Shown: positions 46,238-55,649, counted from the stretch's first letter. The stretch is DNA of 64,000 nucleotides from Candidatus Poribacteria bacterium (GCA_964291315.2 OZ219752.1:256001-320000); one strand, 5' to 3'. Made by a program: numbers and translations. The notes: generated from the letters alone by a model not told the origin.

Positions 46238-46942
46238 GTGTTGAAGCAACTGTTATCAGACAAGCGTATTTTATGCGGTTTTATCTGTGTGTTGGTGCTG
46301 GTTGTTGGCGGCGTGGTATATGAGAGATCGGTGAAACAGCAAGCCCGCCGCGATATCCGACGCACTGAAAAGATCGTCAAAGAGAGGCAACGTCAGGAGA
46401 CCGGCTCTCAGCCCACAGAGAGTGGTCACTACCATTCGGATGGAACATATCACACAGGCTCACATGAAGCACCGGCCGGCACGACTGCCCCGTCAGAAGA
46501 GGGTAAGAAGAGCGGTATAGCTCCTGAGCGTGTGATATGGACAGGCAAGCCCCTGCGTGAGGTGTCCGCACCCGATCCGCTGAGTCCCGCGGAGCGCAAA
46601 GCACGCAATGCGAAGATCCAAGCACTCAATATACAGATACAGAAACTCAGAGGCGTAACAGAAGCAAAAACCGTCGAGTGTGATGAACGCATTAAGGCAT
46701 CTTCTAAAATCCTCAGGGAAAGGGAAGCAATCTCGGCAGAGCTGGACGCATTCCTCGTTGCAGAGGATCGCACTGCGGAAGAACAAGCACGCTTTGATGC
46801 ACTTTTAAAACAGTATTTAGAATTGCGCAACCTCTTTCATGAAAAGCACGCCATCGCTAAGCAAACGCTAGAAGAGAAGCGCACACTTCTTGAAAATCTC
46901 TATAGACTTGAAACGGATCGCGATGCGTTACGACGCCGATAA
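46238..46942 (+). CDS. array paralog 1 (TM anchor, His motif, coiled coil type A)
   Basis: 234 aa; GHYHSDGTYHTGSH; KTVECDERI. Confidence 0.9.
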   Translation: MLKQLLSDKRILCGFICVLVLVVGGVVYERSVKQQARRDIRRTEKIVKERQRQETGSQPTESGHYHSDGTYHTGSHEAPAGTTAPSEEGKKSGIAPERVIWTGKPLREVSAPDPLSPAERKARNAKIQALNIQIQKLRGVTEAKTVECDERIKASSKILREREAISAELDAFLVAEDRTAEEQARFDALLKQYLELRNLFHEKHAIAKQTLEEKRTLLENLYRLETDRDALRRR

Positions 46943-46954
46943 GGAGGCATGTTG

Positions 46955-47002
46955 ATGAAGCACAGACGTATTGTAGTTGCAATAATATTAGGTTTGATGT
47001 AA
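46955..47002 (+). pseudogene. 15-codon stub MKHRRIVVAIILGLM (also 47760, 48565, 49368, 54859)
   Basis: GGAGG RBS; same distance from the upstream stop and same GL register as the start of 50173..54051. Confidence 0.6.
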
Positions 47003-47042
47003 TGTAAAGTTTACGGACTTAACTGAAAAGGAGAAGGATGTA

Positions 47043-47747
47043 ATGTTGAAGCAACTTTTATCGGACAAGCGTATTTTAGGTGGGCTTATCTGTGTGTTGG
47101 TGTTGGTTGTTGCCGGCGTGGTATATGAGAGATCGGTGAAACGACAAGCCCGCCGGGATATACAGCGCCCTGAAAAGATCGTCAAAGAGAGGCAACCTCG
47201 GGAGACCGGCTCTCAGTCCGCAGAGAGTGGTCACTACCATTCGGATGGCACATATCACACAGGCTCACATGAAGCACCGGCCGACACGACTGCCCCGTCA
47301 GCAGAGGGTAAGAGGAGCCGTATAGCTCCGGGAGATGTGATATGGATGGGCAAGCCGCTGCGTGAAGTGTCAGCACCCGATCCGCTGAGTCCCGCAGAGC
47401 GCAACGCACGCAATGCGAAAATACAAACACTCAATACACAGATACAGAAACTCAAACGCATAACAGAAGCACAGACCAACGAGTGGTTGGAACACCTTAA
47501 AAAATATCCTAAAATCAGCCGAGAAAAAAGGGCAATCTTGGCTGAGAAGGATAAACTCCTCGCTGTAGAAGATTGGACTGCGGAAGAACGAGCCCGCTAT
47601 GACGCACTTTCAAAAAGGTTTGAAGAATTGAACGATCTAAGTGACAAAAGACGCGCTATCTCTGAGCAAATGCAGGAAGAGAACCTCCAGCTTCTTGAAA
47701 AGCGCGATGCCCTTGAAGCGGAACTGAGTGCCTTACGGCGCCGATAA
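47043..47747 (+). CDS. array paralog 2 (type B)
   Basis: 234 aa; QTNEWLEHLKKYPKISRE. Confidence 0.9.
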   Translation: MLKQLLSDKRILGGLICVLVLVVAGVVYERSVKRQARRDIQRPEKIVKERQPRETGSQSAESGHYHSDGTYHTGSHEAPADTTAPSAEGKRSRIAPGDVIWMGKPLREVSAPDPLSPAERNARNAKIQTLNTQIQKLKRITEAQTNEWLEHLKKYPKISREKRAILAEKDKLLAVEDWTAEERARYDALSKRFEELNDLSDKRRAISEQMQEENLQLLEKRDALEAELSALRRR

Positions 47748-47847
47748 GGAGGGATGTTGATGAAACACAGACGTATTGTAGTTGAAATAATATTAGGTTT
47801 GATGTAATGTAGCATTTACTAACTTAACTAAAAAGGAGAAGGATATA

Positions 47848-48552
47848 ATGTTAAAGCAATTGTTATCGGATAAGCGTATTTTATGCGGTTTTATCTGTGC
47901 TTTGGTGCTGGTTGTTACGTCGCTGGTGTATCAGGGATCTGTGAAACGGCAAGTCCACCGAGATATACAACGCACTGAAAAGATCGTCAAAGAGAGGCAA
48001 CGTCAGGAGACCGGCTCTCAGCCCACAGAGAATGGGCACTACCATTCGGATGGCACATATCACACAGGCTCACATGAAACACCGTCTGGCATGACTGCCC
48101 CGTCAAAAGAGGTTGAGAGGAGCGGTATAGCTCCTGAGAGTGTGATATGGACAGGCAAGCCGCTGCGTGAAGTGTCAGCACCCGATCCGCTGAGTCCTGC
48201 AGAGCGCAAGGCACGCAATGCGAAAATACAAGCACTCAATACTGAGATAAAGCAACTTGTGCGCGCAACGCGGGCACACATGCACAAGTATAATGAACAA
48301 GTTGACAAATATCCCAAAATCAGGCAAGAAATAAAGGCAATCTCGACAGAGTTGGACACTTTCCCCGCTGCAGAGGATCGCACTACGGAACAACAGACAC
48401 GCTATGACACCCTTTTAAAACGGTATTTAGAATTGGAGAACCTTGCTGACGAAGTTCTCACTATCGCAAATGAAATGCGGGAAGAGAGCCGCCAGCTTCT
48501 TGAAAATCTCGATCCACTTGAAACGGAGCTGAGTGCGTTACGGCGCCAATAA
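47848..48552 (+). CDS. array paralog 3 (type C)
   Basis: 234 aa; RAHMHKYNEQVDKYPK. Confidence 0.9.
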   Translation: MLKQLLSDKRILCGFICALVLVVTSLVYQGSVKRQVHRDIQRTEKIVKERQRQETGSQPTENGHYHSDGTYHTGSHETPSGMTAPSKEVERSGIAPESVIWTGKPLREVSAPDPLSPAERKARNAKIQALNTEIKQLVRATRAHMHKYNEQVDKYPKIRQEIKAISTELDTFPAAEDRTTEQQTRYDTLLKRYLELENLADEVLTIANEMREESRQLLENLDPLETELSALRRQ

Positions 48553-54051: not shown

Positions 54052-54064
54052 GCGATTTCTTTGA

Positions 54065-54098
54065 GAACAAAGCCTTGTTTTTCAGTAGGGCTTTGTTC
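54065..54098 (+). terminator. stem-loop after large gene
   Basis: GAACAAAGCCTT / AGGGCTTTGTTC; no U-tract on + strand. Confidence 0.55.
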
Positions 54099-54141
54099 AA
54101 AAGGAGGCAAAGCGAGTGCCTAATATTAAGGGGATGACGTA

Positions 54142-54846
54142 ATGTTGAGGCATCTATTATCAAACAAGCGGATTTTGGGTGTGGTTGTCTGTGCTTTAGT
54201 GCTGGTTGTTGCCGTCGTGGTGTATCAGGAAACGGTGAAACGGCAAGCTCACCGCGATATACAACGCACTGAAAAGATCGTCAAAGAGAGGCAACGTCAG
54301 GAGACCGGCTCTCAGCCCACAGAGAATGGGCACTACCATTCGGATGGCACATATCACACAGGCTCACATGAAACACCGTCTGGCATGACTGCCCCGTCAA
54401 AAGAGGTTGAGAGGAGCGGTATAGCTCCTGAGAGTGTGATATGGACAGGCAAGCCGCTGCGTGAAGTGTCAGCACCCGATCCGCTGAGTCCTGCAGAGCG
54501 CAAGGCACGCAATGCGAAAATACAAGCACTCAATACTGAGATAAAGCAACTTGTGCGCGCAACGCGGGCACACATGCACAAGTATAATGAACAAGTTGAC
54601 AAATATCCCAAAATCAGGCAAGAAATAAAGGCAATCTCGACAGAGTTGGACACTTTCCCCGCTGCAGAGGATCGCACTACGGAACAACAGACACGCTATG
54701 ACACCCTTTTAAAACGGTATTTAGAATTGGAGAACCTTGCTGACGAAGTTCTCACTATCGCAAATGAAATGCGGGAAGAGAGCCGCCAGCTTCTTGAAAA
54801 TCTCGATCCACTTGAAACGGAGCTGAGTGCGTTACGGCGCCAATAA
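54142..54846 (+). CDS. array paralog 6 (type C)
   Basis: identical to paralog 3 beyond residue ~38. Confidence 0.9.
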   Translation: MLRHLLSNKRILGVVVCALVLVVAVVVYQETVKRQAHRDIQRTEKIVKERQRQETGSQPTENGHYHSDGTYHTGSHETPSGMTAPSKEVERSGIAPESVIWTGKPLREVSAPDPLSPAERKARNAKIQALNTEIKQLVRATRAHMHKYNEQVDKYPKIRQEIKAISTELDTFPAAEDRTTEQQTRYDTLLKRYLELENLADEVLTIANEMREESRQLLENLDPLETELSALRRQ

Positions 54847-54944
54847 GGAGGGATGTTGATGAAACACAGCCGTATTGTAGTTGAAATAATATTAGGTTTG
54901 ATGTAGTCTATACTTCAGGAACTGAAAAGTAGGAGCATAACAAA

Positions 54945-55649
54945 GTGTTGAAGCGTCTATTATCAAACAAGCGGATTTTGGGTGTGGTTGTCTGTGCTTT
55001 AGTGCTGGTTGTTGCCTTCGTGGTGTATCAGGGATCAATGAAACAGCAAGCTCACCGCGATATCCGACGGACTGAAAAGAGCATCAAAGAGAGGCAACCT
55101 CGGGAGACTGGCTCTCGGTCTGCAGAGAGTGGGCACTACCATTCGGATGGGACATATCACACAGGCTCACATGAAACAACGTCTGGCACGACTGCTCCGT
55201 CAGCAGAGGGTAAGAGGAGCGGTATAGATCCTGAGCGTGTGATATGGACGGGCAAGCCGCTGCGTGAGGTGTCCGCACCCGATCCGCTGAGTCCAGCAGA
55301 GCGCAAGGCACGCAATGCGAAGATCCAAGCACTCAATACAGAGATCGAGCAACTCTGGCGCGTAATAGAGGCACAAACCGTCGAGTGGAATGAACACGTT
55401 GATAAATATCCTAAAATCAGCCGAGAAAGAAGAGCAATCTTAGCAGAGATGAACGCCCTCCCTACTGCACAGGATTGGACTGCGGAAGAACGAGCTCGCT
55501 ACAACGCACTTTCAAAAAGGTTTGAAGAATTGGACGATCTAAGTGACAAAATTTTCTCTACCTCTGATCGGATGCAGGAAGAGAATCGCCTGCTTCTTGA
55601 AAAGCGCGATGCCCTTGAAGCGGAGCTGAGTGCGTTACGGCGCCAATAA
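54945..55649 (+). CDS. array paralog 7 (type B-like)
   Basis: 234 aa; QTVEWNEHVDKYPKISRE. Confidence 0.9.
   Translation: MLKRLLSNKRILGVVVCALVLVVAFVVYQGSMKQQAHRDIRRTEKSIKERQPRETGSRSAESGHYHSDGTYHTGSHETTSGTTAPSAEGKRSGIDPERVIWTGKPLREVSAPDPLSPAERKARNAKIQALNTEIEQLWRVIEAQTVEWNEHVDKYPKISRERRAILAEMNALPTAQDWTAEERARYNALSKRFEELDDLSDKIFSTSDRMQEENRLLLEKRDALEAELSALRRQ

Follow-up and report, generated by a model that had tools for sequence, protein, structure and literature searches.

What arrangement keeps seven copies of one small membrane-anchored protein, all of the same length, around a single very large exported protein? The question is raised by positions 46238-55649 of a 64,000-nt stretch of DNA from Candidatus Poribacteria bacterium (GCA_964291315.2, OZ219752.1:256001-320000), the whole of which is called the window here. 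The island holds seven open reading frames (ORFs) of 234 amino acids (aa) and one of 1292 aa, all on the plus strand, in the order five small genes, the big gene and two small genes, exactly where an original prediction, made from the nucleotide sequence, had placed them. That prediction took the small proteins for constant/variable partners of the exported protein and likened the island to effector/immunity arrays. The reading favoured here, which stands about an even chance of being correct, is that the island represents a Poribacteria-specific envelope module of two cognate proteins, a small membrane dock and an exported Cys4His4 repeat protein.

The small genes occupy 46238-46942 (copy 1), 47043-47747 (copy 2), 47848-48552 (copy 3), 48651-49355 (copy 4) and 49456-50160 (copy 5) before the big gene, and 54142-54846 (copy 6) and 54945-55649 (copy 7) after it, with a start-to-start spacing of 803-805 bp. 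An alignment of their products needs no gap in 234 columns and gives 64-79% identity to copy 1; every copy has a start codon with a GGAG-type ribosome site ahead of it. The copies share 84-93% of their nucleotides over codons 1-135 and 66-100% over codons 136-234, in agreement with the earlier description of equally long proteins with a conserved N-terminal half and a variable C-terminal half. Three types of C-terminal half, or head, sit on this homogenized N-terminal half: type A in copies 1 and 5, type B in copies 2, 4 and 7 (copy 7 is a mosaic that lies nearest to this type), and type C in copies 3 and 6, whose C-terminal halves are 100% identical. An assembly artefact is rejected for the array as a whole on account of the 4-22% of nucleotides at which the copies differ; the only spots where the assembly could err are an exact 761-bp duplicate and the 162-bp internal repeats of the big gene. 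An 82-aa antisense ORF recurs in every small paralog (46377-46625, minus strand, and its repeats) and most likely reflects the repetition of the DNA, not a gene. AT skew is strongly positive (0.17-0.23) across the small paralogs.

An AlphaFold2 model of copy 5, built with 17 aligned sequences, has a mean predicted local distance difference test score (pLDDT) of 77.7. A helix of residues 9-55 holds the hydrophobic anchor, which only about ten residues precede. A tiny hairpin follows at the His motif, residues 76-104 are disordered, and two antiparallel helices (117-171 and 180-233) are modelled with pLDDT above 90. Among the seven copies, 26 of 47 columns are invariant in helix 9-55 and 18 of 25 in the His-motif region, compared to 21 of 55 and 17 of 54 in the two long helices. 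The variable half had been called a coiled coil. Its helical character stands, and because AlphaFold2 gives two long antiparallel helices, its predicted shape is that of a helical hairpin.

The big gene (50173-54051) encodes a protein with a signal peptide, 72 Cys and 72 His. It carries 13 canonical modules with the ligand order C-C-H-C-H-C-H-H, all of which follow the pattern C..C..H-x3-C-x3-H-x4-C-x7-H-x2-H, and the last His is the final residue of the protein. Eight type I modules of 47 aa, arranged in four pairs, span aa 546-1040 (51808-53292). Five type II modules of 39-40 aa span aa 1046-1292 (53308-54048) and form the most conserved part of the family. The 162-bp internal repeats of the gene match each other at 93% of positions, and G+C content in its repeat part (52000-54000) is 0.576, compared to 0.45-0.50 around it. 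Across 40 aligned modules, taken from the window and from the related loci described below, residues C13, H25, C29, H33, Y35, C38, H46 and H49 are invariant. The AlphaFold2 model of the module has strands at 26-28 and 34-36 and a helix at 40-47 (mean pLDDT 73.5, predicted template modelling score 0.48). A Foldseek search of the PDB with this model gave no match with an expect value (E) of 1e-3 or less (best E 1.2). One weak row, the UBZ zinc finger 4bmj (E 2.2, root-mean-square deviation 2.8 Å over 29 columns), makes the modelled resemblance to zinc fingers a lead rather than a result.

The two genes belong together wherever their arrangement can be read. A search that covered proteins of 710-2261 aa and 8000 candidates yielded ten outside relatives of the big protein (756-1010 aa), among which the C-terminal type II module is nearly unchanged. 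When the alignment of this C-terminal repeat was used as the query in one genome per species, 37 stretches fitted the pattern, nine were confirmed, and eight loci (L001 to L008) were obtained. Seven of these have Candidatus Poribacteria in their titles, and the eighth is an 'uncultured bacterium'; a single complete chromosome of 4.82 Mb carries four of the loci, and at least five big genes are present on one complete chromosome. Both families appear, so far, solely in Candidatus Poribacteria, to which all named relatives belong. Each of the ten big genes that have a 5' end (the one in the window and nine in L001-L006 and L008) directly follows a small-family gene of the same strand, at distances that range from a 4-nt overlap to a 40-nt gap in ORF maps and hidden Markov model (HMM) scans; L007, a 1.5-kb contig, is left out of this count. 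Each of the ten upstream genes encodes the anchor and the motif H-x-H-x-D-G-x-x-H. A few small copies sit downstream of a big gene, among them copies 6 and 7 of the window, and arrays of at least two small genes are also present in L001, L004 and L008. Co-occurrence and copy number, examined with HMMs as had been proposed with the original prediction, give adjoining genes in ten of ten evaluable modules, and the idea of a partnership is strengthened further by a model of the complex that passes its controls.

This model combines aa 26-200 of the big protein with aa 95-234 of copy 5, the copy that ends 12 nt before the big gene, and was made with alignments for both chains. Its score is 0.85, compared to 0.01 for the best of three controls. 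The mark used to judge such scores is reached by 58 of 80 solved complexes and by 2 of 110 mismatched pairs, figures that are approximate here since our own alignments were used. At least 67% of contacts recur between runs, and the pLDDT of the partner is at least 82. On the big protein, the predicted interface comprises the N-terminal helix (aa 35-87, encoded at 50275-50433) and, in addition, aa 107, 109 and 180-182; on the small protein it takes in both hairpin helices at aa 139-225, the predicted docking surface. The model supports the view that the hairpin of copy 5 binds the first helix of the mature big protein.

The predicted contact face is also where the copies differ most. Within aa 136-225, the 36 contact positions have an entropy of 1.15 and the 54 others one of 0.78; 4 of 36 and 19 of 54, respectively, are invariant among the seven copies (permutation p = 0.009). 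Residues identical to those of copy 5 are found at 24 of the 36 contacts in copy 1, at 18 in the type C copies (3 and 6) and at 8-11 in the type B copies (2, 4 and 7). The small proteins encoded in the related loci have heads of several unrelated types. In 45 comparisons between modules, three pairs have similar small C-terminal parts, and all three are among the five pairs with similar N-terminal parts of the big protein; one of the three, L002 with L008, spans two genomes. Since whole-operon ancestry can yield such covariation, the pattern points to stable pairs rather than to co-evolution.

The same division into constant and variable parts extends from the array to the small family at large. 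A word-based search with copy 1 returned the window's own six clusters and one outsider, P0007 (246 aa, 44% identical). A profile of the seven copies and P0007, run against 1.84 billion representatives, yielded 100 matching proteins at an E of 1e-3 or less; the number falls to 35 at E ≤ 1e-10 and to 7 at E ≤ 1e-30. With few exceptions, the 100 matches are confined to profile positions 1 to about 85 and lie at the N terminus of the matched protein. The common part therefore consists of the anchor, the following helix and the His motif; beyond this N-terminal module, the remainder of each relative differs between members. A Pfam scan covered 95 of the 100 (the window's own representative, P0006, and four proteins of 56-85 aa were left out), and among these only P0117, with TPR repeats, passes curated cutoffs. 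P0020 reaches 21.5 bits for the lipase chaperone family PF03280 (cutoff 25.7), and P0036 reaches 24.4 bits for OmpH/Skp, below the cutoff. A broader profile of 37 diverse members matches 243 proteins at E ≤ 1e-5 among 8000 scored candidates; among the 120 of these matches that were listed, all nine rows that name a source are given as hypothetical proteins of Candidatus Poribacteria bacterium.

Residues G63, H64, H66, D68, H72, H76 and P85 are at least 90% conserved across the 37 diverse members. The family motif that the first six outline, G-H-x-H-x-D-G-x-x-H-x-x-x-H, follows the membrane anchor and is probably a metal site. The charges beside the anchor were counted in 187 members that have the motif and an N-terminal hydrophobic stretch. 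The flank on the N-terminal side is the more positive one in 112 of them, equal in 40 and less positive in 35; for the six paralog sequences of the window the corresponding numbers are three, one and two. An N terminus inside the cell and a body in the periplasm are favoured by these charges but not settled. A periplasmic body would fit a client that has a signal peptide.

As had been said of them at the outset, the two proteins belong to no recognized family. Pfam gives nothing above curated cutoffs for the small proteins, only sub-threshold coiled-coil noise, and for the big protein no family at E ≤ 1 and no toxin domain. NCBIfam, PADLOC and PHROGs return weak coiled-coil matches for both proteins, the best in PADLOC being JetC (E 6e-4, 16 bits), again coiled-coil noise; no metal-binding family is matched in Pfam or NCBIfam. 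Sequence searches of the PDB give no match for the big protein and coiled-coil noise for the small-family profile (best 9if7, E 0.0018), Foldseek finds nothing in the PDB at E ≤ 1e-3 with the model of the small protein, and the ESM Atlas holds no usable match to either. Pfam scans detect no TonB_C domain in the window copies or the 95 relatives, and no anti-sigma match, PE (PF00934) or PPE (PF00823) in the window proteins. Among the titles and abstract openings returned by full-text searches of literature on Poribacteria, none concerns either family.

The spacers of the array preserve a record of its origin. Behind copy 1, a mini-ORF of 15 codons plus a stop (46955-47002, plus strand) stands after a GGAGG and is a stub of the 5' end of a big gene. 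Homologous stubs follow copy 2 (47760-47807), copy 3 (48565-48612), copy 4 (49368-49415) and copy 6 (54859-54906); there is none after copy 7. Set against the big gene that follows copy 5, all five match its ribosome site and start in exact register. They are identical to the start region of the big gene at 33-36 of 71 nt, compared to a window background of 18.1 (standard deviation 3.7). Because one unrelated position in the window scores 37 of 71, the weight of this evidence lies in the single, pre-defined register and not in the value alone. The duplicated unit was evidently a small gene together with the first 50 nt or so of a big gene, copied in tandem. The inclusion of a big-gene 5' stub in the unit again points to an ancestral operon of small gene and then big gene. 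An ORF of 114 aa in L004 (5308-5652) has a signal-peptide-like start and comes immediately after a gene of the small family; as in the spacers of the window, it may be what is left of a truncated big gene.

After duplication, sequence was exchanged among the copies. An exact 761-bp duplicate (47962-48722 and 54256-55016, plus strand) comprises the body of copy 3 or 6, the spacer, and the start of copy 4 or 7, and marks a recent gene conversion or segmental duplication. The nearest neighbour of each copy shifts along the gene, and 3376 of 8646 informative site pairs fail the four-gamete test. On this evidence the copies are mosaics that were reshuffled by gene conversion after duplication.

Nonsynonymous (dN) and synonymous (dS) divergence in the two halves, a comparison proposed with the original prediction, was estimated by the Nei-Gojobori method. 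The N-terminal half gives dN 0.093, dS 0.260 and a dN/dS of 0.36; the C-terminal half gives dN 0.307, dS 0.398 and a dN/dS of 0.77 (pairs 0.55-1.06). The C-terminal types differ from one another at 86-100 of 297 nt, yet they contain no stops or indels. In simulations with 40-50 random substitutions, 16-20% of C-terminal halves remain free of stops per lineage, which is modest evidence that the reading frames are maintained. Entropy is 0.69 in mostly hydrophobic columns and 0.76 in other columns of the first hairpin helix, and 0.70 and 0.87 in the second. The stubs and the mosaicism, like the larger gene module to which related loci point, had no part in the original prediction.

In most related loci, the pair belongs to a wider module of four genes: a GspC-like gene, the small gene, the big gene and a gene for an extracytoplasmic function (ECF) sigma factor. 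In tblastn searches with the sigma factor of L001, the big gene is directly followed by a homolog, whole or fragmentary, in five of nine modules (L001, L002, L003(+), L004(b) and L006), and Pfam confirms Sigma70 regions in L001, L002 and L006. With the upstream ORF of L005 as the query, a homolog or fragment appears directly before the first small gene in seven of nine modules. This ORF is called GspC-like after Pfam matches to T2SSC (PF11356) that score 18.6 and 20.4 bits (E 4.7e-4 and 1.7e-3) and miss the cutoff of 27. Tblastn of the window with the sigma and GspC-like proteins of the loci gave nothing at E ≤ 1e-3 (best E 0.22). Some modules are damaged. The big gene is split into two ORFs in L001 (8147-10426), L002 (8138-10408) and L006 (8625-10399), and the split big genes and fragmentary sigma genes (L002, L003, L004) reflect either decay of duplicated modules or sequencing errors. 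An ORF on the minus strand of L001 (10917-11396) overlaps the end of the sigma gene and looks transposase-like by eye only. In L008, a homolog of STT3-type oligosaccharyltransferases lies directly after the big gene (10494-12549).

How might an envelope module of two cognate proteins operate? The small protein would cross the inner membrane with a single N-terminal helix, followed by the His motif, a flexible linker and a variable head, which in the window would be a long alpha-hairpin. The big protein would be exported by means of its signal peptide and present a helical domain first and then 13 or more small Cys4His4 modules that resemble zinc fingers. The hairpin would clamp the first helix of the mature client so that a helical bundle forms. 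Reserved for this one client as a membrane dock or chaperone, the small protein would hold it, fold it or pass it on, and it may also provide metal for the client's modules. Shown here are the layout of the genes, the two families, their co-occurrence, the history of duplication and the mosaicism; binding has the support of a model, and topology, metal binding and biological role are inferred.

Several observations weigh against such a dock. Binding is predicted for one copy, copy 5, and the three controls were unrelated natural proteins, not coiled coils, whereas long helices pair easily in such models. The variability of the contact face may just reflect the exposed face of a hairpin, which is expected to vary more than its core. 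The mean dN/dS is below 1, and positive selection is not demonstrated. The flank charges (112 of 187 members; three against two in the window) leave the topology of the anchor unsettled. Neither protein model is matched by Foldseek at E ≤ 1e-3, and zinc binding stays a prediction. Small genes outnumber big genes by 14 to 9 in the loci and by 7 to 1 in the window, so many of them have no adjacent client, and the contig of P0007, the nearest outside relative of the small gene (length 210109), agrees in length with none of those of the ten big-family relatives found among proteins of 710-2261 aa and 8000 candidates, so that pairing of this subtype is seen in the window alone. Finally, the GspC-like and ECF sigma genes that are usual elsewhere are absent from the window.

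Other explanations draw on the same observations. Metal could be the purpose of the system rather than a cofactor, an alternative that overlaps the favoured reading and that we consider possible but doubtful. The His-motif proteins would then be periplasmic sensors or metallochaperones and the big protein a high-capacity metal buffer or sink, with an ECF sigma factor regulating the system elsewhere. The content of 72 Cys and 72 His, the eight ligand-type residues in each 39-47-aa module, the nearly invariant H-x-H-x-D-G-x-x-H of the small family and the sigma gene or fragment directly after the big gene in five of nine locus modules all suit this role. However, no metal-binding family is matched in Pfam or NCBIfam, the window has neither a sigma gene nor a transporter beside the island, and metal binding itself is a prediction. 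A metal store would also leave the polymorphic heads, and their covariation with the N terminus of the big protein, unexplained. The GspC-like homolog directly before the first small gene in seven of nine locus modules suggests instead that the big protein is the substrate of a secretin-type pathway like the type II secretion system (T2SS), that the GspC-like and small proteins provide private recognition and hand-over, and that the extra copies are spare or alternative adaptors. The weak T2SSC matches (E 4.7e-4 and 1.7e-3) and the sub-threshold similarity of P0020 to lipase chaperones and of P0036 to OmpH/Skp point the same way. Yet neither the T2SSC scores (18.6 and 20.4 bits; cutoff 27) nor the chaperone matches, which fall in coiled-coil regions, reach their cutoffs, and the window contains no GspC-like sequence and, among the ORFs scanned, no T2SS genes. 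A secretion adaptor of this kind seems unlikely.

Could the array be functionless for the most part? If only copy 5 were functional, the other six would be by-products of unequal crossing-over that drift under relaxed constraint. A C-terminal dN/dS of 0.55-1.06 (mean 0.77) and a dead big-gene stub in every spacer are compatible with this, and the fragmented sigma genes and split big genes of related loci show that modules do decay. All seven copies nevertheless keep a frame of equal length, a start codon and a GGAG-type ribosome site, when only 16-20% of C-terminal halves would stay free of stops per lineage under random change. The N-terminal half is under purifying selection (dN/dS 0.36), and mostly hydrophobic columns vary slightly less than others in both helices of the hairpin. 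We therefore judge neutral amplification to be improbable. Far harder to sustain is the analogy with effector/immunity arrays made by the original prediction, in which the big protein would be delivered as a toxin and the small proteins would be variants that confer immunity to it. A multi-copy constant/variable family beside one large exported protein invites the comparison, and the spacer stubs homologous to the big gene recall orphan cassettes. Pfam, however, detects no toxin domain. Nowhere is the big family better conserved than at the C terminus, where Cys/His modules run on to the last residue. The small gene lies directly upstream in all ten modules, all small proteins share the membrane-anchored N-terminal module, and their variable part pairs with the N terminus of the big protein, not with its tip. 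PADLOC adds coiled-coil noise only (best JetC, E 6e-4, 16 bits). This analogy is not supported and is now very improbable, while the ideas of a partnership and of constant and variable parts are retained.

A more speculative extension of the favoured docking module, which we put forward with low confidence, is that the array functions as a cassette system for a switchable docking receptor and provides programmed envelope variation in a sponge symbiont. The homogenized N-terminal half and the stub would let recombination place any of the three hairpins before the big gene, or create mosaics. The dock used by the big protein, or its retention or release, would change as a result, and the system would involve two families without described relatives. 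Poribacteria are uncultured and abundant sponge symbionts, and we know of no account of the manner in which their envelope meets the host. The island defines a lineage-specific module with at least 243 proteins on the small-family side, a predicted interaction of its two proteins that lends itself to testing, small Cys4His4 repeats of a new kind and a His motif conserved near the membrane. It also records clearly how amplification and gene conversion centred on the predicted contact face. Two families that can be defined by HMMs, three hairpin types and one client helix offer handles on envelope assembly, metal use or surface variation in this phylum.

Copy 1 is preceded by a 650-nt non-coding leader (45587-46237). 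A promoter-like site, TTGACA-17-TAAATT, with 10 of 12 matches lies 135 nt before copy 1 (46075-46103, plus strand) and is a possible, weak candidate for the operon promoter. The 14 promoter-like sites in the region are not above the number in shuffled sequences (10.8, standard deviation 3.4), and the count of terminators is likewise not above shuffles. The leader also contains a perfect palindrome, AATGTTACAC-ca-GTGTAACATT, at 45923-45944 and a further half-site at 45821-45830, which may serve as an operator for a regulator. In scans of the window with Rfam and ARAGORN, the only RNA gene is a tRNA-Ala (GGC) at 42354-42429, 3.8 kb upstream of the island.

The neighbours of the island encode a DEAD/DSHCT helicase, a GNAT acetyltransferase and HEAT/PDZ proteins. 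The helicase gene (43178-45586) lies between the tRNA gene and the leader. Just downstream of the island (56283-58696) are genes for two HEAT-repeat proteins of the PBS-lyase type with N-terminal hydrophobic stretches, the second of which has PDZ domains. A phage origin is rejected in view of these housekeeping neighbours and the lack of a significant PHROG match. Farther away, at 27381-30527 and 40811-42214 (minus strand), lie genes for a Type ISP restriction-modification enzyme (Type_ISP_C, E 7e-93) and for a DNA methylase fused to HEAT repeats.

The island shares parts of its organization with several known systems. It departs from modules of ECF sigma and anti-sigma factors in that no sigma gene is present in the window and only about ten residues precede the anchor of the small protein, and from TonB in that Pfam scans show no TonB_C domain. 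In the model of the Cys/His module, the conserved half consists of two short strands and a helix with the invariant Cys and His in or beside them, as in beta-beta-alpha zinc fingers of the C2H2 or UBZ type. Unlike those fingers, the modules have eight ligand-type residues rather than four, belong to an exported bacterial protein and bind metal by prediction only, and they have no significant structural or sequence match to fingers in Foldseek, Pfam or the PDB.

The polymorphic toxin loci of the contact-dependent inhibition (CDI) and Rhs systems carry orphan cassettes with a short stub that is homologous to the main gene. Tandem variant cassettes with a main-gene stub, and mosaic recombination among cassettes, are found in the island as well. 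However, its stub derives from the 5' end of the big gene and not from a toxin tip, its variable element is an upstream membrane protein, there is no toxin or immunity domain, and a small gene lies directly upstream of the big gene in ten of ten modules, not directly downstream of a toxin tip.

A parallel in gene order is offered by the mycobacterial PE-PPE families, in which a short helical-hairpin gene lies directly upstream of a larger gene and which are expanded in one lineage. Here, too, a hairpin gene precedes a larger one, the N-terminal helix of the large partner is predicted to join the bundle and long repeats follow it, and the families are expanded in one lineage. The poribacterial proteins differ in having no PE or PPE domain, and no ESX genes are seen among the window ORFs scanned. 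They come from a bacterium of the Gram-negative type, the small partner is anchored in the membrane, and the large one has a Sec-type signal peptide.

The Lif foldases of Pseudomonas and Burkholderia (PF03280) consist of an N-terminal membrane helix, a flexible linker and an all-helical domain, and each is dedicated to the lipase of a neighbouring gene. The copies in the window do not match PF03280 at E ≤ 1, and the relative P0020 reaches 21.5 bits against a cutoff of 25.7. The gene order is reversed compared to Lif, the client is a Cys/His repeat protein instead of a lipase, and the small gene is present in many copies with a His motif and polymorphic heads. The match is one of architecture only: a small protein with an N-terminal anchor, a linker and a helical domain is encoded beside its exported client, and in related loci a GspC-like gene is found nearby.

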